Assembly (NCBI RefSeq): GCF_000300075.1
Contig: NC_018677.1
Location: 30,001 to 62,000, forward strand
Direction: 5' to 3'
Source: Candidatus Saccharimonadota bacterium
Lineage (GTDB): Bacteria > Pseudomonadota > Gammaproteobacteria > Johnevansiales > Johnevansiaceae
Length of the DNA stretch: 32,000 nucleotides
Shown: positions 1 to 31,949 of the stretch, in pieces
Layout: each line of letters starts with the position of its first letter
How positions within the stretch are numbered: the first letter of the stretch is position 1
Position numbers and translations under genes: made by a program
Notes under the pieces: generated by a model
What the model was told of the DNA's origin: nothing
What the model saw: only the letters and a program-made list of their open reading frames with translations
Database searches by the model: none

Positions 1-37
1 AATTGTGGTTAGGGGTTGTATAAAGTTTTTTTTATAG

Positions 38-155
38 GAAAAAGGGTGTGTATAATTATGGTTTTATGAGGTGTTTGTAAGAAGTAATATAAGAAAGGTA
101 AAGAGAAAAAAAGAAATGTAGTATAAAAGAAAAAAGGGTTTGTATAATAATGGTT
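38..155 (+). repeat. Imperfect direct repeat pair of about 26 nt (38-63 and 129-155)
   Basis: The two copies are gaaaaagggtgtgtataattatggtt and gaaaaaagggtttgtataataatggtt, spaced 91 bp apart. Confidence 0.6.
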
Positions 156-599
156 AAATGCTGTGTTAGGTAAAAGAGAGATATTTGTTTTTGGTAGAGT
201 GATGAGAAGGTTAGTTAAAATGTATTAGATGTTGTTTTGTTTAACATTTGTGGTAAAAAATAGATGAGTAGTTAAAAGATAACTGATAGATGTGGTATAT
301 ATATGAATTGTTTTAAAGTTAAGTACATAAAATTATTAATTGTTAATGGTATTAGGGGTATGCGTTTTGTTGAATATGTCTTATTAACTTAATTAAAGGT
401 TAAATTTTAGCTTAGATGTTTTATTTGTCTATTATTTAGCGATAACAGGCATTATTGAGTTATTTTCGGTATAGGTAAAGTAAATGTATAATCATATTAA
501 AAATATAAATTAGATGTTATGATTAATAGTTGATTAAATAGAATATAGATAGAGTGGTGTTATTGGTATTAATGGAATAATAGTAAGATTAGTATACAG

Positions 600-708
600 G
601 TTATATGTAAAAATGGAAGAGTCGGATAGGTTGTCAAAAAAAATAAGAGAAGTTATATAAAAATGGAAGAGTCGGATAAGTTGTCAAGAATATAAGAGAT
701 ATTATATG
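600..708 (+). repeat. Tandem duplication with a unit of about 50 bp, roughly 2 copies
   Basis: The sequence taaaaatggaagagtcggata[g/a]gttgtcaa occurs at 608-637 and 658-687 (29/30 identical). The downstream halves have diverged and carry a 1-nt indel. Confidence 0.8.
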
Positions 709-822
709 AAAAAAAGTAAAGATATTCGGCAATATAAGTTTAAAAAAACAAGTAAAGTCGTACAGTTTTACTAATAGAATAAAATTAAAATCATAAAATA
801 AACAAAAAAAAAAGAAATAAAT

Positions 823-2394
823 ATGAATAACAGTGAATATAAAAGATATAACTTCATAGTAGAGAATTATGTAAAAAAAATACTTAAAGCAAAAGTGTAT
901 GAACTTGCTAAAGAAACACCTTTAGCTTGTACGCCGTTACTTTCTACTTATTTAAAAAACAACATATTTATAAAGCGTGAAGATTTACAACTAAACTTTT
1001 CGTTTAAAGTTAGAGGCGCTTATAACTGTATGAGAAACTTATTAAAAAATAAGAATATTCAATGCGTAATTACAGCTTCAGCTGGAAACCATGCACAAGG
1101 AGTTGCTTTAGCGGCAAAAAAATTGGGTATAAAATCAATTATTATTATGCCAAAAGTTACACCTGAAATTAAGGTTTTATCTGTACAATCGATTGGATGT
1201 GAAGTTTTAATAAAAGGTGATAATTTTAATTCGTCTTTAAAGTATGCGTTAAGTTTAGTAAAGAATTATGGTTATACTTACATACCTCCTTTTGATGACA
1301 CAGAAGTTATTGCAGGTCAAGGCACTTTAGCGATGGAAGTATTAAAACAATATAAAAATAAAATACATGCAATATTTGTTCCAGTTGGCGGAGGAGGATT
1401 AATTGCAGGTATTACAGCGTATCTAAAATATTTACGTCCTAAAATAAAGATCGTTGGTGTAGAGCCAGAAGATTCTGCTTGTTTAAAAGAAGCAATTAAA
1501 TATGGTTATCCAATAACATTAAATACTATAGACATGTTTGCAGAAGGAGTAGCAGTATCACGGGTTGGAAAGAAGCCTTTAAAGTTAATAAAAAATATAT
1601 TAGACGATCTAATAACTGTTAATATAGATGAAATGTGTAGTGCAGTAAAAGATATATTTGAAAATACAAGAGCATTGGCAGAAGTTTCAGGAGCTTTATC
1701 TTTAGCTGGTTTAAAAAAATATATAATAAAACAAAACATTACAAATAAAAATTTAATTTGTGTTAATACTGGAGCAAATATTAATTTTGACAAATTACAA
1801 TATATAGCACATAGAACAGCACTAGGGGAAAACAAAGAATTAATATTAGCTATAAAATTACCTGAATCTATAGGGAGTTTAAAAAGTCTATGTAATATAA
1901 TAGGAAACAAGAAAAGGTTTACTGAATTAAATTATCGGTTTTTAAATAAAAAAAAAGCAAATATATTGATAGGTTTAAAAATAATTCCAGGGAATGAAGA
2001 TAAAAAATTAGTAATTAATAATATACGTAAGGCTAAGTTTTTAGTTAAAGATATGAGTTCAAATGAATTAATAAAAATACATATTCGTCATTTAATTGGA
2101 GGACAAGTAAATAAATTTACAAATAAAAAAAATTATAAAGAAGAATTATATTGTTTTGAATTTCCAGAAAAAACAGGAGCATTAATAAAATTTTTAAATA
2201 GTTTACCAGAAATATTTAATATTTCTTTATTTCATTATAGAAATTATGGCTATGCCTATGGTCGTGTTTTAATAGCTATTCAATTATATAAAAATAAAAA
2301 ACAACAAGTAGAAAGTAATTTAGATAAGTTAGGTTATAGATATTGGAACGAAAGCAAAAATGTTGCTTATAAAATGTTTTTAAATCAAAATTGA
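823..2394 (+). CDS. ilvA: Biosynthetic threonine dehydratase (threonine ammonia-lyase) with a C-terminal regulatory domain
   Basis: The protein is 523 aa. It has the PLP-lysine motif FSFKVRGAYN and the glycine loop PVGGGGLIAG. A C-terminal extension of about 190 aa matches the double ACT-like regulatory region of IlvA. The stop codon is TGA. Confidence 0.95.
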   Translation: MNNSEYKRYNFIVENYVKKILKAKVYELAKETPLACTPLLSTYLKNNIFIKREDLQLNFSFKVRGAYNCMRNLLKNKNIQCVITASAGNHAQGVALAAKKLGIKSIIIMPKVTPEIKVLSVQSIGCEVLIKGDNFNSSLKYALSLVKNYGYTYIPPFDDTEVIAGQGTLAMEVLKQYKNKIHAIFVPVGGGGLIAGITAYLKYLRPKIKIVGVEPEDSACLKEAIKYGYPITLNTIDMFAEGVAVSRVGKKPLKLIKNILDDLITVNIDEMCSAVKDIFENTRALAEVSGALSLAGLKKYIIKQNITNKNLICVNTGANINFDKLQYIAHRTALGENKELILAIKLPESIGSLKSLCNIIGNKKRFTELNYRFLNKKKANILIGLKIIPGNEDKKLVINNIRKAKFLVKDMSSNELIKIHIRHLIGGQVNKFTNKKNYKEELYCFEFPEKTGALIKFLNSLPEIFNISLFHYRNYGYAYGRVLIAIQLYKNKKQQVESNLDKLGYRYWNESKNVAYKMFLNQN

Positions 2395-2409
2395 AAATAA
2401 TTATGTAAT

Positions 2410-2414
2410 GGAGA
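2410..2414 (+). promoter_or_regulatory. Shine-Dalgarno-like GGAGA, 6 nt upstream of the TTG start of fpr
   Basis: The sequence ggaga lies at 2410-2414 and the TTG start at 2421. Confidence 0.55.
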
Positions 2415-2420
2415 ATTTGA

Positions 2421-3194
2421 TTGAAAAGTTTTTGTCTTGAAAAAATTTTAAACGTTGTTCATTGGAATCATAATTTATTTAGTTTTTTTATTACCAAACA
2501 TAAAACTTTTCGTTTTAATAATGGGCAATTTATACTTATTGGTTTAAATAATAATAAATACTATAAATTAATAATAAGAGCTTATTCTATCGTTACCCCC
2601 AATTATGCAAATCATATTGAATTTCTTTCAATAACAATAAAAAACGGAAAATTTACATCATTATTAAAAAATATAAAAATTGGTGATTATATACTAATAA
2701 GTACAAAATCTTCTGGAAGTTTAATACTTGATAATATTCGAATTGGTAAAATTTTATATCTTTTATCTACTGGAACTGGTTTAGCACCATTTATAAGTTT
2801 AATACAAGATCCACTGATATATAACAGGTTTGACAAAATTATTTTAATACATGGAGTAAGTTATATAAAAAATATAGCATATAAAACTTTTGTTAATAAA
2901 AACATTTTTTATAGGTATATTGTTAACATAAAAACAAAGTTAATTTATTATCCAACAATTTCTAGGGAAATTTATATAAATAAAGGTAGAATAACAGAGC
3001 TTCTTATTAAAGGAACCTTATTGAAATGTTTAAAGTTACCTTTTCTTAATTTTCATTATGATAAGTTAATGTTATGCGGTAATAGAGCTATGTTACAAGA
3101 ACTTATATATTATTTAACTAAGTTATCTTTTAGATTTTCAATAATAAATAATCCAAATGATTTTGTATTTGAATATTCTTTTATAAGCAACTAA
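2421..3194 (+). CDS. fpr: Ferredoxin/flavodoxin-NADP+ reductase
   Basis: The protein is 257 aa. It has the FAD-binding RAYSIV motif, the NADP-binding LLSTGTGLAPF motif and MLCGNRAM near the C-terminus. It is collinear with E. coli Fpr. The start codon is TTG. Confidence 0.9.
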   Translation: MKSFCLEKILNVVHWNHNLFSFFITKHKTFRFNNGQFILIGLNNNKYYKLIIRAYSIVTPNYANHIEFLSITIKNGKFTSLLKNIKIGDYILISTKSSGSLILDNIRIGKILYLLSTGTGLAPFISLIQDPLIYNRFDKIILIHGVSYIKNIAYKTFVNKNIFYRYIVNIKTKLIYYPTISREIYINKGRITELLIKGTLLKCLKLPFLNFHYDKLMLCGNRAMLQELIYYLTKLSFRFSIINNPNDFVFEYSFISN

Positions 3195-5340
<2,146 letters not shown>

Positions 5341-5344
5341 TTAA

Positions 5345-5602
<258 letters not shown>

Positions 5603-5630
5603 AAGGAATCACTTACATTAAGTTAAAACG

Positions 5631-5648
5631 TTAAGGTTAAGGTTAAGG
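5631..5648 (+). repeat. Hexanucleotide repeat (TTAAGG)x3 immediately upstream of the atpF GTG start
   Basis: The sequence ttaaggttaaggttaagg was read directly. Each unit carries an SD-like AAGG. Confidence 0.85.
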
Positions 5649-5656
5649 TAATCTTT

Positions 5657-6127
5657 GTGAATATTAATTTAACTATTTTATGTGAAGTTATAAACTTTTC
5701 TATTTTAATATGGTGTTGTAAAAATTTCATTTGGCCGCCAATAAAAAAAAATATATTAGATAGAGAAAAAACAATAAATAATGCTTTAACAGCTGCTAAT
5801 ATAGCAAAAAAAGAATTATATAAAGCAAAAAAAGAATCAAAATATATTTTATGTATAGCAAAGAAAGAAGCAGATTTAATATTAGAAAAAGCACGATTAC
5901 ATCACAATGTAATACTTGAAAAAGCAAGAAATATATCGAAAAAAGAAAGTGATATTGAATTAAAAAACAGGAAAAAGTTATTTGAAGAGCATTTGGCAAT
6001 TAGAAAAAAAGATTTGCATGAAAAACTAATAAAAGTATCTTTAATCGGTTTAGAAAAATTATTAGAAAGTTCAATAAATATAAACATAAATAAAGAAATT
6101 TTTAAAAAGTTAGTAAACAAAATATGA
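5657..6127 (+). CDS. atpF: F0F1 ATP synthase subunit b
   Basis: The protein is 156 aa with a GTG start. The N-terminus MNINLTIL...FIWPPI aligns with E. coli MNLNATIL...YVWPPL. A long charged helix follows. Confidence 0.9.
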   Translation: MNINLTILCEVINFSILIWCCKNFIWPPIKKNILDREKTINNALTAANIAKKELYKAKKESKYILCIAKKEADLILEKARLHHNVILEKARNISKKESDIELKNRKKLFEEHLAIRKKDLHEKLIKVSLIGLEKLLESSINININKEIFKKLVNKI

Positions 6128-6645
6128 AAATATCTGTAAAATTAAAAAAAAACAACCCATATTTAAAAGCATTATGGACAGTATCAGTTTTATCAAAAGA
6201 TTTAGATAAATGGAAAAATAGAATAAAAATTGTTGAGTTTATTTTAAATTATTATAAAAAAAATAATGTATGTAAAAGTTTTTGGGTTAAGACACAATTA
6301 AAAAGGGTTTTAGATACAGACAGTTTAAAAGTAATAAAGTTATTATTAATAGCTAATCAAAATAAGAAAACAAAATATATTTTATTGTATTATGAAAATA
6401 AGATACTACAACAATATAAGATTATGAGTATAGAAATACTTAGTGCTTTTATAATGAACAAAAAGCAAAAACAACAAATAACAAACAAAATAAGTTTAAA
6501 ATTAAAAAAAAAAATTTTTATAATAAAGATCAAAATAAAAAAAAAGATAATGGGTGGCTTTATTATAAAGCTTAAAAATATAAATATAGATTGTTCAATA
6601 ATCGGTAGATTAAATAAATTAAAAAATAATATATTAGGGTATTAG
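6124..6645 (+). CDS. atpH: F0F1 ATP synthase subunit delta
   Basis: The protein is 173 aa and overlaps atpF through ATGA. The N-terminal PYLKAL...W and the C-terminal GGFIIKLKNINIDCSIIGRLNKL align with E. coli AtpH ([23 protein letters not shown]). It is highly diverged and Lys-rich. Confidence 0.85.
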   Translation: MKISVKLKKNNPYLKALWTVSVLSKDLDKWKNRIKIVEFILNYYKKNNVCKSFWVKTQLKRVLDTDSLKVIKLLLIANQNKKTKYILLYYENKILQQYKIMSIEILSAFIMNKKQKQQITNKISLKLKKKIFIIKIKIKKKIMGGFIIKLKNINIDCSIIGRLNKLKNNILGY

Positions 6646-6656
6646 GATGATGAATT

Positions 6657-8189
6657 ATGAAACAATTAAAGTTTTCTGAACTTAGTAATATAATCAAAAA
6701 AGAACTTACAAATATTAAGTTTCAATTAGATTTGAAAAATGAAGGAATCATTATAAATGTATTTGATGGAATCGTTCGAATGTATGGATTATATGATGCT
6801 ATGTATGGTGAAATAATAGAATTTGTGGACAATATTTTTGGTTTAGTCTTTAATATTGAACGCACGAATGTAGGTATAGTGATCTTAGGCGATTATAAGA
6901 ATCTTTCAGAAGGAATGAAAGGTAAATGCACAGGTAACTTATTAAAAGTACCTGTCGGTTTAGAACTAATTGGTAGAGTTGTAGACACATTAGGAATTGC
7001 TATAGATGGTAAAGGAACAATAAAAACAAAAAAAAAAGATTTAATTGAAAAAATAGCGCCAGGTGTTATCTGCAGAAAAACTGTAAATCAACCATTAAAC
7101 ACAGGTATAAAAGCAATAGATTCAATGATTCCAATAGGTTTAGGGCAAAGGGAATTAATTATTGGTGATAGAAATGTTGGAAAAACATCGCTATGCTTGG
7201 ATGTAATTTTAAATCAAAAAAATAAAGATATAACTTGTATATATGTTGCTATCGGGCAAAAAAAATCTAATGTTGTAAAAATTGTAAATGTTTTTGAGAA
7301 ATATGGAGCTATGAATTATACAATAGTAGTTGTTGCTTCGGCATCAGACCCGGCTATAATGCAATATTTAGCCCCTTATACAGGTTGTACGATGGGTGAA
7401 TATTTTCGTGATAGAGGAAAAAATGCAGTAATTGTATATGATGATTTAACAAAACAAGCTTGGGCATATAGACAAATATCATTGTTGTTAAAAAGACCAC
7501 CAGGAAGAGAAGCTTATCCGGGGGATATTTTTTATATCCATTCAAAATTATTAGAAAGAGCTTGCAGGGTTAATAAGAAGTTTGTTGGTAATCAGACAAA
7601 AGGAAGAAGAAATACAACGGGGTCATTAACAGCTTTACCAATTATAGAAACAAAAGGTGGAGATGTATCAGAGTTTATTCCTACAAATGTAATTTCTATA
7701 ACCGATGGGCAAATTTTTTTAGAAACAAATTTATTTAATAATGGCATAAGACCTGCAATAAATGTAGGTTTATCAGTGTCAAGAGTAGGTGGTTCTGCAC
7801 AGACTAAAATTATAAAAAAATTAGGATCAGGTATTCGTTTATCTTTGGCTAAATATAGAGAGTTAGAATCTTTTGCACAATTTAGTTCAGAATTGGATAA
7901 AATAACTAAAAAACAAATTATTAAAGGAAGAAATATAACAGAATTAATGAAACAAAAGCAACTAAACAAAAGGAGCGTAGCTGAATTAGCAATTTTATTG
8001 TATGCTGCAAATAAAGATTATTTAAACGATGTAGATATAAAAAAAATAGCTTTTTTTGAAAACGAACTAATAAAATATTTAAATATAAAATATAAAAAAA
8101 TAAGAAATTTGATAAATAAAAAAGGTAAAGAAGAGTATATAGAGCAATTAAAACAAATATTAGAAAAATTTAAAGAAAATCATAGGTAA
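6657..8189 (+). CDS. atpA: F0F1 ATP synthase subunit alpha
   Basis: The protein is 510 aa. It has the Walker A motif GDRNVGKTS and strong full-length conservation, for example [27 protein letters not shown]. Confidence 0.97.
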
Positions 8190-8193
8190 AAAA

Positions 8194-10454
<2,261 letters not shown>

Positions 10455-10674
10455 TCACAATAAAAACATCTTACCATTAACACCTCTTTAAACATCAACA
10501 CCTCATAATATAATAACAGTTTGTACCTACATAACGAAATAAAAGATCATACAGCATAATTAAAGTAAGCTAAAAAGTCTCATAAAAATAGGCAAAAAAT
10601 ATAACACAGAAAAAAAACAAAAAAATATAGTAATAAAAAACATAAATATAAAAGAGAGTAGACTTGGAATTCAT
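10455..10674. other. 220-bp A/C-rich spacer inserted between atpD and atpC inside the atp operon
   Basis: The spacer has no ORF. It shows the same two-part composition as the large spacers (A/C/T-rich, then A-rich). Confidence 0.8.
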
Positions 10675-11103
10675 ATGAACAGTATTCAATGTGATATTAT
10701 GAGTATAGACTGTTTAATCTTTTCAAAAAAAATAAAACAAATAACAGCAATTGGTACGGAAGGGGAATTAGGCGTTTTATCAGGACATACCCCATTTATA
10801 ACACAATTAAATTCAGGTCCTTTAATAATTACACATATTAATAATAAGAAAGAAATTTTTTATTTAGATGGTGGTTTAATTGAAGTTGAATCAAATATGA
10901 TTTCATGTTTATCTTATTCTATTATTAAAGCTAATGAGATTAATGAATATGAACTAACTAAAAATATTAATGAAGCTAAAGTTTTAATTAAAGAAAAATC
11001 ATCAACAATAAATTATACACGCGCAATTGCAGATATATCTTTAGCACATTCTCGCTTACGTACTTTAAAACAATTTAAAACTACATTAACTAACAATGCT
11101 TAA
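10675..11103 (+). CDS. atpC: F0F1 ATP synthase subunit epsilon
   Basis: The protein is 142 aa. GTEGELGVLSGHTPFIT and YLDGGLIEV align with E. coli AtpC (GSEGELGIYPGHAPLLT, YLSGGILEV). Confidence 0.92.
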   Translation: MNSIQCDIMSIDCLIFSKKIKQITAIGTEGELGVLSGHTPFITQLNSGPLIITHINNKKEIFYLDGGLIEVESNMISCLSYSIIKANEINEYELTKNINEAKVLIKEKSSTINYTRAIADISLAHSRLRTLKQFKTTLTNNA

Positions 11104-11160
11104 CATAAACTAAAATATATACAAAAAATGAAAGACTAAACCGTGTAAGGAAAAAAGTAA

Positions 11161-12180
11161 ATGAATTTACGTAATAGGAATCTTTTAAGCTTAATGAATC
11201 ATACTAAAGAAGAAATCAATTATTTATTAAATCTAGCAAGTTATTTAAAAAAGTCAAAATATATAGGTAATGAATATCCTAGATTAAAAGGTAAAAATTT
11301 AGCTTTGCTTTTTGAAAAACCATCAACTAGGACTCGGTGTGCTTTTGAAATTGCAGCTAAGGATCAAGGTGCTAATGTAACTTACATTGATTCTAACTCT
11401 TCTCAACTTGGAGCAAAAGAAACTATTAAAGATACAGCAAAAGTATTAGGTCGTATGTTTGATGCAATTCAATATAGAGGTTTTAGCCAAAAAATAATTG
11501 AAGAGTTAGCAAAAAATTCAGGTATCCCGGTTTTAAATGGATTAACAAATGAATTTCATCCAACACAAGTTTTAGCTGATGTATTGACTATGTTAGAGCA
11601 TAGTAACAATAAATCTTTTAATAAAATAAAATATGTTTATTTAGGTGATGCACGTTACAACATTGGAAGATCTTTATTGTTAATTGGTGCAAAACTTGGA
11701 ATGGATGTACGAATTGCTGCTCCTAAACAATTTTGGCCAGAAGAAAAATTTTTTATATTTTGTAACAACATAGCAAAAAAAAACAATTCAAAACTACTTT
11801 TAGTTGAAGATCCTTATCTTGCTGTAAAAAATGTAGATTTTATATACACGGATGTTTGGGTTTCTATGGGAGAAAGCGAAGAGGTATGGTGTGAAAGAAT
11901 TAATTTTCTTTCAAAATATCAAATAAATAACGAACTTATAAAACATACCAATAATTTTAAAGTTAAAGTAATGCATTGTTTACCCTCTTTTCACAATACT
12001 GAACCATTTGTTATAAATAACTTATTTAAAAAACATAAGCTTATAAAAAACAATCAAACTTTATTGAATGGTTTTGAAATTACTGATGATATTTTTGAAT
12101 CTTCATTTAATATTTCTTTTGATCAAGTTGAAAATAGAATACATACAATCAAAGCTATTTTGGTTTCTACGTTGAGTTAA
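11161..12180 (+). CDS. argF: Ornithine carbamoyltransferase
   Basis: The protein is 339 aa. It has the carbamoyl-phosphate motif [13 protein letters not shown], and the HCLPSFHN ornithine-binding motif (E. coli ArgI HCLPAFHD). Confidence 0.93.
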
Positions 12181-12420
12181 CCCCAAACTACTATAACTTT
12201 AATCAATAACTATTTTAACAACCTCTTTTAACACTTCTCTACTTTACAACTACTTTATTATTACCTACAACAACAAACAATTGTCAAATAACATAATAGT
12301 ATAAAAAACAGAAATAGACCTCTAATAATAAAGCCATCCTCTAAAAACAATATAACACATAACAACAACAACTATGCTTAAATACAATAACAAAAATCAT
12401 CTAACAGATAAAAACTCTAA

Positions 12421-12500
12421 CAACAAACCTCACCTCTAAAATCTTAAAAGCAACATCAAACAACATACCTCACCTCTAAAATCTTAAAAGCAACATCAAA
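12421..12500 (+). repeat. 40-bp tandem duplication, 2 copies with 1 mismatch
   Basis: The sequence caaca[a/t]acctcacctctaaaatcttaaaagcaacatcaaa occurs at 12421-12460 and 12461-12500. Confidence 0.9.
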
Positions 12501-12654
12501 TAACTAACAGATAAAAAAAACCATCTTAAAACTTTAAAGCAACTTCTTTTTAAAAACCATCAAACAACAAAAAATAATAACTATCCTCTAAAAAATAATC
12601 AAAAACCTCTACATAACAACAAATAATATATAAAAAACAACATATTACTTCTAA

Positions 12655-12752
12655 CCAACAACCAACAACCAACAACCAACTACCAACTACCAACTACCTA
12701 CTACCTACTACCTACAACCTCTAACCTAACAACTCTAACCTCTAAACTCTAA
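12655..12752 (+). repeat. Heptanucleotide array with stepwise variant blocks
   Basis: Read in 7-nt register, the array is (CCAACAA)3 (CCAACTA)3 (CCTACTA)2 CCTACAA CCTCTAA CCTAACA ACTCTAA CCTCTAA ACTCTAA. Confidence 0.9.
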
Positions 12753-13336
12753 TAACTAAAACTCTAAACAAATAACAATTTTAACATCTAATAAATAAAC
12801 CTACAACCTAAAAATATAACCATTTTATTTTAACATCTAAACTCTTACCTCTTTAACATCTTTAAATAAACATCTACAAAACAACAAATAACCTCTAACG
12901 TTTCTAAAAAACCAATCTCCAATTAACATCAAACAACCTCTTACACAGAAATAAGTAACATCTAACACATAACAACATAAAAAGAAAAAGATCTAGCAAA
13001 TTTATTATAAAAACATAACTAACCCTCTAACAAAAAAAAACATAAATAAATAAACAACAAAACTAATAATCAATAACAACAAACCTCTAACACCTAATTA
13101 TTTAACAATTAACAATATTTAAGCATAAGTTGTATTACATAACAAAAACACAAAACAATATTTAATAAAATTATAACAAATAAGAATTGAAATAATTAAT
13201 AATACAACAAACTTATAAAAAAAGAAGAAGGTAAAACAGCTAACAAATAGTTATAAAAAATAACAACAAACGACTAACAAAAAAAAAGAAATAACAAAGA
13301 ATAAACAAAAAGCAAAAAATAAAGAGGTAGTAACAA

Positions 13337-13448
13337 ACCTAAAACCTAAAACCTAAAACCTCAAACCTAACAACTCAAACCTCAAACCTCAAACCTCAAA
13401 CCTCAAACCTCAAACCTCAAACCTAACAACTCAAACCTAAAACCTAAA
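13337..13448 (+). repeat. Heptanucleotide array of 16 units with a nested, near-symmetric block structure
   Basis: The array reads (ACCTAAA)3 ACCTCAA [ACCTAAC AACTCAA] (ACCTCAA)6 [ACCTAAC AACTCAA] (ACCTAAA)2. Confidence 0.9.
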
Positions 13449-13754
13449 AAACAAACATCTAACATCAAACATCAAACAAATAAACTCTAAATAACAAAAA
13501 AAGAACATAAAAACTAAGAGTAAACACTAACAAAAAAAATATAACGCATAAAAAGAAAACAAAAGCTAAAACAACAGACATCTAATATAAAACATATAAA
13601 GCTAAAGAGAAACAAACGGTTGTATAAAAAGAAAATAAACATAACACATAACAGAAAAAAGTAGTAACGGCGCGGGAAAGTTTGTAAAAAAAAAAACGAA
13701 AAAAAAACACAATAATAAAAATAAGAAAGCAGTTTAAATAGGTATTTTGCTGTA

Positions 13755-13759
13755 GAGGT
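13755..13759 (+). promoter_or_regulatory. Shine-Dalgarno GAGGT, 5 nt upstream of the leuD ATG
   Basis: The sequence gaggt lies at 13755-13759 and the ATG at 13765. Confidence 0.6.
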
Positions 13760-13764
13760 TTAAA

Positions 13765-14391
13765 ATGGAAAAAATTATTAAGCACAAAGGATTAGTTGTA
13801 CCTATAAATAGATCAAACATAGATACTGATTTAATAATTCCTAAGCAATTTTTAAAAGCAATAAATAGTAGTGGATTTGGTTTAAATTTATTTGATGGAT
13901 TGCGGTATATTGATGAAGGTTATCCAGGAAAAAAAAACAGATTAATAAATAAAGATTTTGTTTTAAATAAATCTAGATATAAAGGAGCTAGTATATTATT
14001 AACACGTAAGAATTTTGGATGTGGAAGCTCTAGAGAACATGCAGTTTGGGCACTTAAAGAGTATGGTTTTAAAATAATTATAGCGCAAAGCTTTGCAGAA
14101 ATATTTTATAATAATGCATTAAAAAATGGTATTCTAATTATAACGGTCAAAAAAAATTTGATAAAGGATCTGTTTTTATCTGTTTGCAAAGAAAAAGGTT
14201 ATATGGTAAATATAAATTTACCAAAACAAATATTATATAATAAAAGTGGAAAAAAGTTTAAGTTTACAATAGATCCGTTTAGCAAATACTGCTTAGAAAA
14301 TGGGTTAGATGATATAGGGATTACATTTAAAGAAATAAAACTTATTAAAAAGTTTGAACATATTCATAACAAAAAAAATCCTTGGTTATAA
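13765..14391 (+). CDS. leuD: 3-isopropylmalate dehydratase small subunit
   Basis: The protein is 208 aa. It has NFGCGSSREHAVWAL, the canonical LeuD motif, and N-terminal VVPINRSNIDTDLIIPKQFLK. Confidence 0.95.
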   Translation: MEKIIKHKGLVVPINRSNIDTDLIIPKQFLKAINSSGFGLNLFDGLRYIDEGYPGKKNRLINKDFVLNKSRYKGASILLTRKNFGCGSSREHAVWALKEYGFKIIIAQSFAEIFYNNALKNGILIITVKKNLIKDLFLSVCKEKGYMVNINLPKQILYNKSGKKFKFTIDPFSKYCLENGLDDIGITFKEIKLIKKFEHIHNKKNPWL

Positions 14392-19998: not shown

Positions 19999-20576
19999 TT
20001 CTTTTTTTTTTAGTTTTTGCTGGTTTTTTCTTTTAACCCTTACTACTACATATACCCCTAACATAAAAACACAATTTACCACTTTTTGCTAATAACTACA
20101 CTACTTTTACAAATACATAACTATTTAACAACACCTACTGTTATATTTTTATATTCTTAATAACTTTTAACTATAATTAAACAATAACTAATAGTTAACA
20201 ATATAAGCTATTAATTAACATCACAAAAGCATTAAACCTAAGTGCTAAACACAACTACATAACAAACTTTTTAACACAATATTCCATTTAATAATACAAC
20301 TACAATTCATAATTTTTACAAAACACAAACAATTAAACTGCTAACACATAAACACATAAGCATTTATACTATCAGCTATAAAAAATAAAACAAAACTACA
20401 TAACTTTTAAGAACAAACAAACAAATGATTTTTAAGCTAACAGCTTTTAATCAAATAACAACTTTTTACATAACTAACCCTCTAACAAAAAAAACATAAA
20501 ATATAAGTCATTACAATATTTTGTATATACTACTAAAACATAACAACACAACAAGAACAGCAAAAAAAACAAAAAA
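19999..20576. other. 578-bp non-coding spacer between serS and tRNA-Arg. It begins with a T-rich 40 nt and is then G-poor and A/C/T-rich.
   Basis: The spacer has no ORF. It shares a 33-34-nt module with the argF-leuD spacer (20468-20500 versus 13013-13046). Confidence 0.8.
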
Positions 20577-20659: not shown

Positions 20660-22240
20660 CTAAAAAAAATGAAGTTGTAAAAATAGGTTTGTTATATTGA
20701 GTTTTTGTACAAGAAAATTAAATAAATATCTTTTATAATGATTTGGTAAACTTTGTTTGGTTGTTTGCCCAAAAACAACAATAATTATAGGATTTATATT
20801 TATTTGTTTTGCTAATAATAATTTAAAATTATGCTTGTTTTTAAAGAGGGGTTTTTTTTTTATTGCTAAATTTAGCAAGTTTGTTAAAAATTTAATAGAC
20901 CAAAATTTTGTCTTTAAAAACACAAATAAGTCAAGAGAATTAAAAATGGAAACGAAATTATAAAGATATAAAGCAGAAATAAAATGCATGGTTAAAATTT
21001 TTGTAAATTGATATAACTTAGAATACAACAACTGATGTATAAACATAATTTGTTTGTTATTGATTGCATCACATTTATTAAAAATTAAAAATAAATGTTT
21101 TCCTGAAAATAAAATCTGTTTTAAAAGAAAGATATCTTGTTCGAAAAAGCCCCTAGTTGCATCGATAACATAAAAAACAATATCATAGTGATGTATAAAC
21201 TTACTAAATAGTTTAAGTTGTTTTATAGTGTTAGTTATTCCTTTTGTATCTGTTAACAGAAATAAATGATTTTTATAGAGGATTTTAATCGTTATATTTT
21301 CTCGTGTAGTACCAGGTTGATGATTAATAATTAAACGCGTTTCTTTTACTAAGCTATTTATTAGTGTTGATTTCCCAACATTGGTTTTACCAATAATACA
21401 TATATTTGTAAGATTACTAGTTTTATGATTGTTGTTTTGTTTATGCTTATTTTGGTTAGTTGTTATTTGTTTAAAGGCTTTGAGTTTAATAGGATTTTTA
21501 TTAATAGGTTGTTTTATGGTTGTTATTTGTTTAAAACTTTTGATAATATTTTTATGTTTGCTGTTTATTAATAGATTGTTATTGGTTATTTTATGATGTG
21601 TGTTTTTGATTTTGAGAGTTTTGTTTTGTGTATGCTGGTTAGTTTTTATTATGTTAGTTGTTATTTTAAGATGTGTGTTGTGAAGTAAAAAGGGTTTAAG
21701 TGTTGTGTTTTGTGTTTGATTTATATAATTGGTTTTATTATCATTAGACAAAATACCAGAAATTCTTGTTAACAAATGTTTTATATTAATTTTGTGTAAA
21801 GCAGAAATAAAAAGTGTTTGATCGTCATAATTTAAATAATTAAAAGAACACGGTATCATATAATCAATTTTGTTAATAATAAATATTATTGTTTTATTTT
21901 TTTTTTGTAAAAACTTAATGATTTTTTTGTAAAAAGAATCTAAGTGACTGTAAGCTGTTATTAAAAACAAAATGATATGTGCTTCTTGAATAGCTATTTT
22001 TGTTTGTTTATTTATACAATAGGTTAGATTGTTTGTTTTATAAGAAAAGAAATCAGTAGAAAGTGCAGCTGTATCTATTAAAGTGCAGTTTTTATTATTT
22101 AGTTGTAATATTCCATACTTTCTATCTCTTGTAAAAAAAGGAATATTGTTTGTTATAGAATCTTTATTTTTTGTTAAGCAATTAAACAATGTTGATTTTC
22201 CTACATTGGTTTTACCAATTATTGTAATAATTTGACTCAT
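20660..22240 (-). CDS. der: Ribosome-associated double-GTPase Der (EngA) with an expanded inter-domain linker
   Basis: The protein is 526 aa. GD1 has GKTNVGKS / DTAA / NKID. GD2 has GKTNVGKS / DTKG / NKCD, starting at about aa 281. A KH-like C-terminus follows. The linker between the two domains is about 114 aa of low complexity. Confidence 0.9.
   Translation of the reverse strand: MSQIITIIGKTNVGKSTLFNCLTKNKDSITNNIPFFTRDRKYGILQLNNKNCTLIDTAALSTDFFSYKTNNLTYCINKQTKIAIQEAHIILFLITAYSHLDSFYKKIIKFLQKKNKTIIFIINKIDYMIPCSFNYLNYDDQTLFISALHKINIKHLLTRISGILSNDNKTNYINQTQNTTLKPFLLHNTHLKITTNIIKTNQHTQNKTLKIKNTHHKITNNNLLINSKHKNIIKSFKQITTIKQPINKNPIKLKAFKQITTNQNKHKQNNNHKTSNLTNICIIGKTNVGKSTLINSLVKETRLIINHQPGTTRENITIKILYKNHLFLLTDTKGITNTIKQLKLFSKFIHHYDIVFYVIDATRGFFEQDIFLLKQILFSGKHLFLIFNKCDAINNKQIMFIHQLLYSKLYQFTKILTMHFISALYLYNFVSIFNSLDLFVFLKTKFWSIKFLTNLLNLAIKKKPLFKNKHNFKLLLAKQININPIIIVVFGQTTKQSLPNHYKRYLFNFLVQKLNITNLFLQLHFF
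21404..21745 (-). repeat. In-frame low-complexity linker expansion of der, made of spacer-like A/C/T-only sequence on the sense strand, including a 60-bp tandem duplication
   Basis: The plus strand of 21421-21720 contains only 5 C in 300 nt, so the sense strand has 5 G. The sequence tgttatttgtttaaa recurs at 21461 and 21521, exactly 20 codons apart, and FKQITT recurs at aa 236 and 256. Confidence 0.85.
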
Positions 22241-23516: not shown

Positions 23517-25451
23517 AAACTATATCTGTTATATTGTTTTGTTTAAACAAAGATTATATTTACTTAAATACTAAATAAGCAATATTAAAACTACATTGCT
23601 AACTAGATTTAAATAATAGAAAATACAATATGTAAAAAAACTCTAATAATAAAACAATTTTTTTAACACACACAAATAATCTACTCAACGCCATTTTACA
23701 ATCTTAATTTAATTCTTTCCTTTCTTATACAAACATAATTCTTTTTAACAAATAACAATTACCACTTCTACATACAATACAATTTTCTTTTCTTTTAACC
23801 AACACCATTAAACCACAACATTTTTATTTAATAACTTTTTAACAACAAAACTTCTACTAATACTACTGTTTAATAAGCCATGATTTTTATTTTCTTTTCT
23901 TTCTTTTTTTATCATTTATCACAAACAACAAATTCTTAACCAAATACATACTTGAGATTGCTAACACATAACATAATTATCATACAAAAAACATCCTTCT
24001 GCTAACATTTGCTAACTTATAACACAAAACACAAACAACAACATGTTACCATCCATTTATTTTTTTTATATAACATATTTTTTTCATTCTACACTTAACC
24101 TTTAAACATAGTTTAGAAAAAATATAACTACACAAGTCTTATATATCAAACTAAACTAATATAATATAACATAACATAACATATAATAAATGAAATACAC
24201 AAACCAAAAATTTAACAAAAATCACTAATACACAATCAAAAAAAAAAACTATATATAATAACAACATACAGCTAAAATATATACAAAACAAAAAAAACAA
24301 GAAAGAATATACACGGTTTAGTAAAAAGCAATAACGATATAAAAATTTAAAGAATAAACAAAAACACTGAACAATAACACAATTTTAAAGATATTTTTTT
24401 TAAGTACAACACAATTTTTAATAAATAATATAAAACTATTAGTTTTACACAACCACTTACAAACTAGTTATAAATTAGTTTTTCAACTTACATCAATACC
24501 AATACAACCATCTCTTTAGCAATACTACATAGTGTTGTATTTATTATTTACATTATTTATAATTAGCATAACAAGTTACGATATTAAGCATTAAACAAAC
24601 AACATCAAAAATAACAACAATCCTAAATTATTAAATATACTTCAAAATTCACAACTCTTTTAAGTACAAAAAATTCTATACATTAATCATAAAACATAAG
24701 ACATAAGAACTATTTAACAACCATAACCACAATTCACAAAACATAAAACATAAGACATAAGAACTATTTAACAACCATAACCACAATTCACAGCAAAACA
24801 AATATTTTTATAATACATATAACTCAAATATGTTAACGAAATTAAGAAAGAACAGATAACACCTAACAACTAAAAAAAGACAAAACAGCAAATAACAAAT
24901 CTAAACGGACATAAAGCATAACATATAACCCAACTTAGCAAAATAAAATACAATAGAGAATAAAAATACAGCAATTAAATAAATTCAGCGTTAATCAAAA
25001 CATAAAAGAAGAACACATACAGCAACTAAATAAAAAGATTAAACTAAAACTCTAACATAAAGCAAACACAAACGCACATACAGATAACACAAATACAAAA
25101 CACATAACAACTAATACAATGAAAATAACAGCTAAAAGTTAACACAAAAACTAAAAAACATAAAATATAAGAACGAAGACATATAAAATAAAAAAGCACA
25201 AAACAAGGAGTAAACAAGCTTATATAACAAAAATATATCCTCTAACACATACCTACAAAACTGCCAACTAACATCAAACATAAACACATAGATCTTAAAA
25301 TAGAATACATATAACTCAAAACAAAAAAAAAACAATAACAAACAGAAAAAAAGTTAAAGCGAAAATATATAAAATCAAAAAAAACAAAAATCAGAAAACT
25401 AAAGAAAACGAATAACACAGAACAAAAACAAAAATATAAAGGACGAAAATA
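23517..25451. other. 1.94-kb non-coding spacer between divergent hisS and lon. The plus strand is G-poor and A/C/T-rich, and becomes A-rich and T-poor from about 24840.
   Basis: There is no plus-strand ORF. The minus-strand track ORF at 25132-25341 is an artefact. The spacer contains repeated gctaaca motifs, an (ATAAC)n tract near 24166 and a perfect 51-bp duplication. Confidence 0.8.
24688..24792 (+). repeat. Perfect 51-bp direct duplication (24688-24738 and 24742-24792) separated by 3 nt
   Basis: The sequence cataaaacataagacataagaactatttaacaaccataaccacaattcaca was read twice with no mismatch. Confidence 0.92.
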
Positions 25452-29657: not shown

Positions 29658-31147
29658 TTTACTTTTTTTTATAAAAAGACTTTACACATTACATTCCAAT
29701 AAATAAAACAAAACAAAACGTAAATAACTATATTTTCATAATTTTTATAAAACAAATCATAACAAAGTTCATAGTTTTTATAAAACAAATCCCAACAAAA
29801 TCCATAGCTTTTTCGTTAGAAAAAAAATTACAAAACAAAGAAATAAATTTTAAATAGAAGAAAAACTTTATATAAACAATTCAACACTTTAAATCTCTTA
29901 ACTAATGATTTTTATCTTATTCAATATAAACATATAAAGATTAAGCTTTATATATAATAGATATATTAACAAACATATTGTTAACCAATATTTAAACTTT
30001 TATTTTTAAACAAAACATCAATTATATATTATTAGTTTAATATATTTTTTTTTGAATTTGATTTGGATTACATAAAGATTTTAACTTGAATAATATCTAC
30101 TAAACTTAAAACTTACTAAACAACAAGTTTTTTATAGACACAACTATTCAAACACTCCATATCTGTTCTATCTTTTCTATTTTTCACATCTAATTTATTT
30201 TTACACAGGAAAATAATAGGCATTTATACTTGTGTACATGTGTTTTTTTTTATCGGTATCGTTAATACGTAATATATGTTTTTAGATATACGTTTAAAAT
30301 AAGTATTTTATATTTTCTTCAAATAACTAATACTAAATATTTTGTTTTTATACAATTAATGTTTTTTTACAAACATATTAATACCTTTTTGTTCAATTTA
30401 TCATTACAAATTCTATTAAATAACAACAAAACCTTATTTTACTTGTATACCGTATGACATATATATTTTTCAAACTATACAATACAAAATACAACTCTTA
30501 TAGTTAGTTAAGTATTAAACAAACAAGTTTAAGCATTTATAATTTTAACAACAAAATTAACTTAACCAATAAATTTAAAAGAAACAACTACTATAAACAA
30601 ACACATTAATCTACTATTTAAACATTACATCCACTACTAACAATTTAACCCTTAACCCTTTTCTACATCTACATTCATTAAACCTACAGCATATTTTACA
30701 TAGTATATACAACCTTCTATATATTAGTAAACTTTACAAGTCTATACAAAAAAGAATAGTTACTATACAGCATACAACTTTAAGCAATAAACAACATACA
30801 GCAGAACCCAATAAATCCATTAACCATACTAATAAAAAAACTGTAATACAAAAGCTAAACAAAAATATCATCTAAAACCATAATAACAAACAAAAAAAAA
30901 TACAACACATAACATAGAAAAAGTAGAAAAAAAAAACAACAAAATAGCATATAGACAAAAAAAAAGAACAGTAAACAGCAAAGAAAAAGAGAAAAATTAT
31001 ACAATACAGAAAAAGATGGTTATATAGTAAAGAAAAAACCATAAAAACACAGAAAGCTAACCATCAAAACTAAACAAAAGACTACGTAGATAAATAGAAA
31101 TATATATAAAAAGTATAAAAAAAATAAGAATATAAGTAAAATTAGAT
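29658..31147. other. 1.49-kb non-coding spacer between ilvD and the miaA pseudogene. It includes an ordinary AT-rich island without skew (about 29900-30480), followed by a G-poor A/C/T part and an A-rich leader.
   Basis: There are no ORFs in the track. Composition changes are visible by eye. Confidence 0.75.
29742..29807 (+). repeat. 33-bp tandem duplication, 2 copies with about 4 mismatches
   Basis: The two copies are tttttataaaacaaatcataacaaagttcatag and tttttataaaacaaatcccaacaaaatccatag. Confidence 0.85.
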
Positions 31148-31949
31148 ATGGGGACCACAGCATCAGGAAAAAAAGTTAGCTATAACTTTAAAAGAATATA
31201 AAATTGTGAGTTAATTAGTGTAGATTCAGCTATGGTTAATAGAAAGATGGATATCGGAACAGCAAAACAAAAATATAGATATCATGAATTAATATATATA
31301 AAAATAATAATGAAAAATATTTAGATTTGGATTTTCGTAAAGAAGCAATAAAAACAATTAGTAAGTTAGGAAAGATTCATATTTTAGTTTGTGGTACAAT
31401 GTTTAATTTAAAAACTTTATTAGAAGGAATAGCAACAATAACTTTTTACAATATTAAATTAAGCAATAAGTATTGTTTATTATTTAATAATAAATTATTT
31501 CATAAAACTGTATTAAAATTATATAATAAAGACATTTATCGAATAAAACGATTATTAGAAGTATATTTAAATACTGATTAATTAATATTGGAAAAACAAT
31601 AATAAAAATTTAAATGAAATGTAATAAAAATTATTATTAAACACAATAACAAGGAAAACTTATATAAAACCGTGTTAATACGTTTAAATATTATTTTTGA
31701 AAAAGCTTTCATCACACAAGTATAAATGTTAACGTTTATGAAAAATATGTATTTAGAATTACCTGAAAATCGAAGTATAGGTTATCGGAAAATTGGTGAC
31801 TTTGTTGATGAAAAATATAATTATTTTATTTTAAAAGATAAGATTTAATCAGCTAATAGAAACTTAGCAAAAAAAAAATTATGGTTACAAAAATATAAAG
31901 ATGCTTTTTTGTTAGATGCTTATAAACATAAAAATAGAAATAGAGATTA
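31148..31949 (+). pseudogene. miaA: tRNA dimethylallyltransferase pseudogene. It is full-length but has several in-frame stops and at least one frameshift.
   Basis: My hand translation is collinear with E. coli MiaA along the whole length. [39 protein letters not shown] matches GPTASGKT...[21 protein letters not shown]. After a frame change, [33 protein letters not shown] matches DFRRDAL...[32 protein letters not shown] follows. Then GYRKIGDFV...KI*SANRNLAKKKLWLQKY matches GYRQ...ATRQLAKRQITWLRGW. Stops lie at 31199, 31579 and 31846, among others. Confidence 0.88.

Follow-up and report, generated by a model that had tools for sequence, protein, structure and literature searches.

Location of the analysed region

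The DNA considered here is a continuous stretch of 32,000 nt (contig NC_018677.1, positions 30,001 to 62,000; hereafter the window), and the subject of this analysis is its intergenic spacers, the two strands of which differ strongly in base composition and the polarity of which is reversed across the gene pair ilvA-fpr. The window was found to represent Candidatus Portiera aleyrodidarum of Bemisia tabaci (MEAM1 type): it is base-for-base identical to CP016304.1 in the reverse orientation, its left 12.4 kb are also identical to the MEAM1 strain BT-B, and the exact ilvA and ilvD proteins of the window are present in complete B. tabaci Portiera genomes. Portiera of B. tabaci is the textbook exception among ancient symbionts of insects, its genome having been re-expanded and rearranged after the loss of DNA polymerase proofreading.

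The window carries ilvA, fpr, atpBEFHAGDC, argF, leuD, leuB, asd, trpF, serS, tRNA-Arg, der, hisS, lon, ilvD and a remnant of miaA, with der and hisS located on the minus strand. With its flanks joined on, the window became part of an uninterrupted sequence spanning window coordinates -9177 to 39657, and further pieces were added on the left (CP016343) and on the right (BT-Q), giving a total of ~85 of the 352 kb of B. tabaci-type Portiera. All statements on polarity made below cover these ~85 kb (about a quarter of the genome) plus the loci of other lineages. The ilvA-fpr pair is bracketed by spacers of two opposite polarities; both genes, together with the skewed spacers of the window, are listed below.

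1..822, minus strand: 822 nt at the right end of the 2,271-nt divergent glyQ/ilvA spacer; plus strand G/T-rich and nearly C-free to ~722, minus strand A/C-rich and G-poor
823..2394, plus strand: ilvA, biosynthetic threonine ammonia-lyase (NCBIfam TIGR01124, 667 bits; exact protein in five complete Portiera genomes)
2421..3194, plus strand: fpr, ferredoxin-NADP reductase-like (E = 8e-35; 120 bits, under the 390-bit cut-off of the family)
3195..4515, plus strand: fpr/atpB spacer, A/C-rich and G-poor (C 240, G 79; skew -0.50)
10455..10674, plus strand: short atpD/atpC spacer inside the atp operon, weakly C-rich (C 34, G 18; skew -0.31)
12181..13764, plus strand: argF/leuD spacer, A/C-rich (skew -0.64), with a 360-nt G-less run and a (CAAACCT)x20 array
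19999..20576, plus strand: serS/tRNA-Arg spacer, A/C-rich and G-poor (C 107, G 22; skew -0.66)
23517..25451, plus strand: divergent hisS(-)/lon(+) spacer, A/C-rich (C 325, G 100; skew -0.53)
29658..31000, plus strand: spacer downstream of ilvD, A/C-rich (skew -0.29 over 29658-31326, strong only to ~31000)

Opposite strand asymmetry of the spacers on the two sides of ilvA-fpr

The first 360 nt of the window contain 4 C, 88 G, 137 A and 131 T, with the first C at position 161; 42 C would be expected from the 11.7% C of the window (binomial P(<=4) = 7e-15). The C-poor tract reaches approximately nt 722 (19 C and 159 G in nt 1-722), and the G/T-rich plus-strand polarity of the glyQ/ilvA spacer is present already from window coordinate -1177. 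The five long spacers downstream of ilvA-fpr contain 1191 C and 349 G on the plus strand when pooled (the last one being taken to 31000), and they harbour G-less runs of up to 360 nt. In the case of the hisS/lon spacer, the A/C-rich composition extends up to the minus-strand gene hisS, with a skew of -0.77 in the adjoining 400-nt interval 23601-24000. Between 31000 and 32000, where the miaA remnant is located, the skew is neutral or G exceeds C.

The reversal is also evident at the level of individual words. Five copies of the motif AACATCTAA are on the plus strand (3913, 12783, 12832, 12957, 13454) and three on the minus strand (225, 412, 510), amounting to 8 matches against 0.93 expected, a number that none of 100 shuffled sequences reached. 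The same change of strand was observed for other words, including TTAGAGGTTA and the 7-mer GAGGTTT/AAACCTC.

An earlier sequence-only reading of the window had reported the scarcity of C in nt 1-360 (none before 161), the mirror-image composition of the long spacers to the right of 3195 and the strand switch of AACATCTAA. The same counts were obtained in this study, all five long spacers proved to have far more C than G on the plus strand, and the exact positions and strands of the motif were reproduced. It had also placed an inverted spacer family at the left edge. The G-rich polarity is indeed present there, but it reaches at least 10 kb further to the left and includes all three spacers of that side. 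The fallback offered in the same reading, namely that the flip is a local oddity, is not tenable, since the gene on the left lies on the minus strand and a rearrangement endpoint maps at fpr (see below). The flip is real and highly non-random. It is a contrast between the two sides of ilvA-fpr, the G-free strand being the minus strand in the upstream spacer and the plus strand in the downstream one.

Polarity along the extended region and in other Portiera lineages

Over the ~85 kb, the plus-strand polarity follows the order G / C (0.4 kb) / G G G / C x7 / G / C. Three tracts left of the window, namely the remainder of the glyQ/ilvA spacer (2,271 nt in total), the gyrB/glyS spacer and the 1.8 kb upstream of gyrB, are rich in G and T and nearly devoid of C on the plus strand. 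The last of these tracts belongs to the 3.2-kb rpmH/gyrB spacer (about -10400..-7155; positions 6782-10000 of locus L256), where the plus strand switches sharply, 0.4 kb of C-rich DNA being followed by ~0.6 kb of T-rich and 1.8 kb of G-rich DNA; no remnant of dnaN is detectable in this spacer, which corresponds to the site of the ancestral origin and dnaN. In the rightward direction, the plus strand remains C-rich through seven spacers, becomes G-rich in the 1.9-kb sufB-sufC spacer (35861-37791) and is C-rich again in the gnd-secE spacer.

Strand-lopsided spacers are common to three Portiera lineages, those of B. tabaci, of a second Bemisia-type lineage represented by ENA assemblies (SufD 84% identical over a 150-residue query fragment) and of Singhiella. 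In the second Bemisia-type lineage the gene order is unchanged and the polarity is identical at every orthologous spacer compared: the spacers upstream of ilvA (L389 89-1052) and between sufB and sufC are G-rich, and the fpr-yidC, mnmG-atpB, argF-leuD and gnd-secE spacers are C-rich. The asymmetry is more extreme in Portiera of Singhiella simplex (CACTJB01), where C amounts to 26-31% and G to 0-3% over most of a 1.3-kb tract, and where a C-free tract of at least 4.4 kb was found. Long spacers and spacer asymmetry are both absent from compact Portiera (LN649255 and two read-archive assemblies).

Two of the spacers mentioned above have been inserted into operons, namely the 220-bp atpD/atpC spacer (10455-10674) and the 1.9-kb sufB/sufC spacer (35861-37791). 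Both in compact Portiera and in the Portiera of Singhiella, sufB directly adjoins sufC.

Nature of the spacer DNA

As analysis with Tandem Repeats Finder revealed, the swollen spacers consist of degenerate 7-bp microsatellites; they are cryptically simple and contain many different 7-bp arrays. One strand is composed of A, C and T (~46% A, 20% C, 4% G) and the opposite one of T, G and A; among the spacers, the A/C-rich strand contains 20-28% C and 1-5% G. Polarity is a property of a whole spacer or half-spacer. Such arrays and cryptic simplicity are limited to the lineages with expanded spacers and were not found in compact Portiera (LN649255, ERR13328196, SRR12131186). Passages of PMC3673631 describe long spacers and a spike of 7-bp tandem repeats in B. 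tabaci Portiera, that is, the same class of microsatellites.

The spacers depart from the neutral composition of the neighbouring genes. At the 4-fold sites of plus-strand genes, G outnumbers C (143 vs 94, summed from a per-gene table), and G+C at 4-fold sites is roughly 10-15%, far under the 20-28% C of the spacers.

Three candidate sources of the skewed DNA were rejected. A dispersed repeat or mobile element common to the spacers is not supported by spacer-versus-spacer BLAST, which returned shifted low-complexity alignments of ~60% identity. Decayed genes are an unsuitable source as well, for no remnants of dnaN or secA were detected in the skewed spacers and the true remnants identified, those of miaA and purA, have neutral skew; purA is intact in the sister (second Bemisia-type) lineage.

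31327-31581: miaA remnant, an 84-codon open reading frame, neutral skew
33199-34435 (window coordinates, outside the window): purA remnant in the hisZ/sufB spacer (tblastn E = 3e-23), neutral skew

Finally, in the short spacers of compact Portiera it is C, not G, that is missing from the sense strand; ancestral seeds of this kind are therefore rejected as the source of the polarity.

In the spacers and genes between window coordinates -9177 and 39657, transversions (A<->T, A<->C, G<->T) make up ~85-90% of the differences that separate the MEAM1, MED, Asia II 3 and China 1 strains. A spectrum so poor in transitions is unusual and is consistent with the loss of proofreading. Changes were polarised by the majority of three roughly equidistant lineages, pooled in the orientation of the G/T strand and tallied by hand. 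In this orientation, the per-site rates are 0.44% for T>G vs 0.23% for A>C and 1.63% for C>A vs 0.88% for G>T, and the equilibrium skew calculated by hand from these rates, ~+0.64, equals the observed one. According to passages of PMC3673631, the lineage has lost dnaA, dnaN, dnaQ, dnaX, holA, holB and ssb.

Gene order history of the region

Comparison with compact Portiera allowed the rearrangements around ilvA-fpr to be reconstructed. The two gene orders are the following:

compact Portiera: mnmG<mnmE<yidC<rnpA<rpmH/dnaN>gyrB>glyS<glyQ<ilvA>ruvX>fpr>nuoA>
B. tabaci Portiera: nuoA<rnpA<rpmH/gyrB>glyS<glyQ<ilvA>fpr>yidC>mnmE>mnmG>atpB>

Exactly one inversion, that of the segment rnpA..fpr with endpoints at rnpA/nuoA and fpr/yidC, separates these orders. 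The gene downstream of fpr is nuoA in compact Portiera, and yidC-mnmE-mnmG-atpB follow fpr in B. tabaci Portiera; the 3' neighbour of rnpA is yidC in the former and nuoA in the latter. The gene fpr is thus the last one of an inverted, origin-containing segment, and the fpr/yidC endpoint corresponds to window positions 3195-4515.

In the window, this spacer is an exact recombinant across the two 349-bp direct repeats of BT-B, formed with the loss of a 6.1-kb yidC-mnmE-mnmG segment: 754 nt of it are identical to the fpr-yidC spacer of BT-B, and 584 nt to the terminal part of the mnmG-atpB spacer. The junction retains a single copy of a repeat that flanks yidC-mnmE-mnmG in BT-B (copies at L391 1996-2344 and 8463-8811, the window coordinates being converted by hand).

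~3833..4188, plus strand: 349-bp direct repeat, single copy plus one extra 7-bp ACAAACC unit

Both the 349-bp repeats and the copy-number-variable 6.1-kb segment are described in passages of Sloan and Moran 2013 (PMC3673631). The CP016304 assembly (352,068 bp) is without the 6.1-kb yidC-mnmE-mnmG segment. Since a chromosome with zero copies of it would be without yidC, the CP016304 form may represent an assembly collapse or a minority form.

Two further spacers coincide with junctions of rearrangement or gene loss, namely argF/leuD (12181-13764), where the ancestral order is argF>secA>gyrA, and gnd/secE (L258 16575-18371), where it is gnd>dnaX>dapA.

Other features of the region

Upstream of ilvA, where the C-free tract stops, a tandem repeat is located ~110 nt before the start of the gene, and it may be promoter or regulatory DNA.

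604..713, strand not assigned: 50-bp tandem repeat, 2.2 copies (Tandem Repeats Finder, period 50, 86% matches)

The interval 5341-5656 is not a spacer, as it holds atpE (5378-5602), which encodes the 74-aa c subunit of ATP synthase. This protein is 100% identical across every Portiera lineage returned, including the compact Portiera genomes, the divergence of which is said to exceed 100 Myr. The product of der (20660-22240, minus strand) is, at 526 aa, long for a Der protein (the profile has 432 positions). On its own sense strand der has more C than G at all codon positions (skew -0.34), a composition from which nearly all other genes differ. An Rfam search of the region for structured RNA genes revealed tRNA-Arg only.

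Polarity of the spacers relative to genes

The sequence-only reading had proposed, among other explanations, that polarity tracks the direction of transcription and that a minus-strand gene lies just left of the window. Such a gene is present: glyQ-glyS lie there on the minus strand, with the start of glyQ 1,448 nt left of position 1, and the G-free strand of nt 1-722 is the sense strand of glyQS. However, the glyQ/ilvA spacer is divergent, so that either polarity would suit one of its neighbours, and it therefore provides no test of the idea. The informative spacers are those between genes of the same direction. In B. tabaci Portiera, 8 of 9 of these are A/C-rich on the sense strand (binomial P = 0.04), namely rnpA>nuoA (on the minus strand), fpr>yidC, mnmG>atpB, atpD>atpC, argF>leuD, serS>tRNA, ilvD>hisZ and gnd>secE; when abcB>gnd of the sister lineage is counted, the proportion is 9 of 10 (P = 0.02). 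The proposal fits all of the same-direction spacers but one, sufB>sufC. In addition, in every one of the three spacers that contain both polarities, the C-rich part precedes the G-rich one on the plus strand, never the reverse. Taken together, the A/C richness of the sense strand and the C-then-G order mean that the G-free strand leads 5' to 3' away from the nearest gene and, in a same-direction spacer, on towards the following gene.

RNA of the two orientations would have very different properties. The predicted folding energy of the G-free orientation is -0.4 and -5.8 kcal/mol per 360 nt, as against about -42 for the complement; for the plus-strand RNA of the argF/leuD spacer, the predicted minimum is -0.4 kcal/mol over 360 nt. 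Start codons occur at 7 per kb in the G-free orientation and at 89 per kb in the complement, and ribosome-binding-like motifs at 0.5 and 8.4 per kb, respectively. Of the 78-nt windows in the G-free orientation, 77% have C>=2G and C>=15%, compared to 0% in the complement and 0% on the sense strands of genes. Positions 1-14000 contain one hairpin-terminator-like site (inside atpE) vs 2.7 expected, and 76 promoter-like matches vs 102 in shuffled sequence. The genes rho, nusA and nusG are reported to be present in B. tabaci Portiera in passages of PMC6699477, and nusG and nusA were seen in the Portiera loci examined here.

A polymerase reading through the end of a gene would thus produce G-free, C-rich, unstructured RNA with few starts and ribosome-binding sites, which is the kind that Rho loads on. 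The explanation towards which we lean, although tentatively, is that polarity is set relative to genes in a transcription-linked manner and that the read-through RNA may serve as a substrate of Rho. The spacer DNA itself would be made by replication slippage, and a transcription-linked filter would then fix its polarity, which, on this explanation, would not be set by the direction of replication. The filter may consist in selection for Rho-dependent termination and against R-loops or spurious translation; a transversion bias linked to the transcribed strand is another candidate.

A number of observations weigh against a gene-relative, transcription-linked origin. Of the nine agreeing spacers, eight are plus-strand spacers of one contiguous region, and the sense strand is confounded with the chromosomal domain; one minus-strand same-direction spacer (rnpA>nuoA) was examined. 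Divergent and convergent spacers, nt 1-822 included, are compatible with any polarity. The rule is breached by the sufB-sufC spacer, the sense strand of which is G/T-rich, and this breach is conserved in two lineages. Moreover, at least 4.4 kb following gnd on contig CACTJB010000003.1 of Singhiella Portiera are G/T-rich, whereas this site is A/C-rich in B. tabaci Portiera. Taken alone, the difference in substitution rates between the strands is not significant (P ~0.08 by our own estimate from small pooled counts). Furthermore, ~80 nt of C-rich RNA suffice for Rho, and selection for kilobase-long G-free tracts in a symbiont with tiny populations is doubtful.

Alternative explanations

One of the explanations put forward in the sequence-only reading was a replication skew switch. 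As a boundary between replichores it is unsupported: a single change of sign lasting a whole replichore was not observed, and, since the codon sites show no flip and the polarity switches several times within 50 kb, ilvA-fpr is not an ordinary origin or terminus. At third-codon and 4-fold sites, plus-strand genes have more G than C on both sides of ilvA-fpr, and the minus-strand genes der and glyS have more G than C on the plus strand as well (hisS and glyQ, with few sites, do not); by the usual rule the plus strand would be the leading one on both sides, which is the reverse of what this rule yields for the spacers. The ancestral origin site, rpmH/dnaN-gyrB, lies 8-10 kb left of the window and not at ilvA-fpr. 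In a modified form, replication could still be the cause if slippage-made spacer DNA recorded the direction of the fork with an A/C-rich leading strand, the reverse of the usual rule, so that ilvA-fpr/yidC would be a present origin-like point of divergence, and if only new repeat DNA were affected, e.g. by a bias of nucleotide pools or of the polymerase (with only dnaE and dnaB left), codon positions being exempt. In agreement with this, the plus strand of the spacers is G-rich left of fpr and C-rich right of it over the ~85 kb with two exceptions, the 0.4 kb beside rpmH and the sufB-sufC spacer, and the gene orientation diverges around this region, with nuo, rnpA, rpmH and glyQS on the minus strand left of it and nearly all genes right of it on the plus strand. 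The site also adjoins the classic origin neighbours yidC-mnmE-mnmG and the 6.1-kb segment that varies in copy number according to passages of PMC3673631, and an unusual mode of replication is plausible given the losses of replication genes described in the same source. Nevertheless, the codon sites remain unflipped, with der implying a leading plus strand and the spacers the opposite, both exceptions are either conserved or sharply bounded, and in Singhiella the spacer that follows glyS has an unchanged polarity relative to this gene even though its other neighbour is different. A record of fork direction is, on balance, considered unlikely.

The history of rearrangements provides another explanation, in which the polarity was set earlier and the segment rnpA..fpr was later turned together with its spacers, the flip being the scar of the inversion. 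The breakpoint postulated in the sequence-only reading does exist, inasmuch as an inversion ends at fpr/yidC; by itself, however, the inversion leaves the polarity unexplained. The single inversion with its two endpoints accounts for the gene orders, all three large spacers inside the segment are opposite to the right-hand block, and the inversion is old, as it is common to the sister lineage. On the other hand, the two largest spacers inside the segment are tiny ancestrally (66 bp for glyQ/ilvA and 46 bp for gyrB/glyS), so that most of the flipping DNA must have been made after the inversion or independently of it. No flip of polarity occurs at the left endpoint, rnpA/nuoA, where the plus-strand polarity is the same as in the segment, and additional flips are found inside rpmH/gyrB and at sufB-sufC, the latter within an intact operon with no rearrangement. 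Besides, the inverted segment holds the ancestral origin (rpmH/dnaN), and the assignment of leading and lagging strands would therefore stay unchanged. An inversion scar seems quite improbable for these reasons. A neutral explanation would be that each spacer grew from its own first microsatellite seed, its polarity being a frozen accident and the rules noted above a coincidence of small samples. The spacers are indeed cryptically simple, with many 7-bp units and no discrete dispersed element found, their polarity is stable between lineages, growth by self-copying would maintain the composition without any ongoing force, and the gene-relative rule reaches only P ~0.02-0.04 and is confounded with position. 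Yet different units within one spacer are all short of the same base, and G stays at 1-5% despite common T>G and A>C transversions, which means that some asymmetry or rapid turnover must act. The agreement of 8-9 of 9-10 informative spacers in their gene-relative orientation and the constant C-then-G order of the two-polarity spacers are likewise not expected of frozen accidents, and the short ancestral spacers that would be the seeds are devoid of C, not of G, on the sense strand. We are therefore inclined to doubt purely neutral inheritance as well.

Significance and comparison with known systems

The flip at ilvA-fpr is not an artefact, and it does not mark a simple origin or terminus. If the polarity proved to be strictly tied to genes, it would offer a handle on the ending of transcription and on insulation in a genome with almost no regulatory proteins, and it would constrain the origin of the spacers to slippage combined with strand-biased, transversion-dominated mutation. 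If a strand-specific process is real, the spacers could show the direction of transcription or replication in an unculturable symbiont. A map of polarity combined with read depth would make the replication of a chromosome without dnaA, dnaN, dnaX, ssb and dnaQ testable. The more far-reaching proposition that the G-free tracts constitute a distinct kind of non-coding DNA, with a polarity read by transcription and with roles both as genome-wide Rho "sinks" for the RNA of any polymerase leaving a gene and in the avoidance of R-loops in a cell deprived of most genes for DNA replication and repair, or else the footprint of an as yet undescribed strand-specific process of transversion or slippage, is a rather speculative one.

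The closest precedent is the spacer DNA of Portiera itself. The papers of Sloan and Moran (PMC3673631) and of Santos-Garcia et al. 2015 and 2020 (PMC5322561 and PMC7821994) deal with the same organism and DNA, and passages of these papers report large spacers, 7-bp repeats, gene losses, inversions and a "lost" or "altered" GC skew, including the "loss of a clear GC skew". In the passages available from the open-access Portiera genome papers, to which the search was confined (subscription papers lying outside it), the near-absence of one base, its polarity, the conservation of the polarity and its relation to genes are not described. Strand-lopsided spacers are thus apparently an undescribed feature of the Portiera lineages with expanded spacers.

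With the GC or keto skew of replication, the Portiera spacers share G+T-rich and A+C-rich strands and changes of sign, including one C-to-G switch at rpmH/gyrB. In contrast to replication skew, the asymmetry of Portiera is found in spacers only, its sign is contrary to that of the 4-fold gene sites in the same region, it is far more extreme, reaching -1.0 over hundreds of bases, and it switches several times within 50 kb.

The tracts resemble rut regions in being C-rich, G-poor, predicted to be unstructured, poor in starts and ribosome-binding sites and located downstream of genes in a genome with few hairpin terminators, and rho, nusA and nusG are present in Portiera according to passages of PMC6699477. 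A rut region is ~80 nt long, however, whereas the Portiera tracts extend over 0.4-4 kb, and some of them lie upstream of genes or are oriented the wrong way (sufB-sufC).

A further parallel is provided by the heavy and light strands of vertebrate mitochondrial DNA, where an A/C-rich, G-poor strand is likewise paired with a G/T-rich one; the mitochondrial genome, too, is tiny, has minimal replication machinery and lacks its own SSB. The mitochondrial bias, however, stems from transitions on the displaced strand and peaks at the 4-fold sites of genes, whereas in Portiera ~85-90% of the changes are transversions and the bias spares the gene sites.

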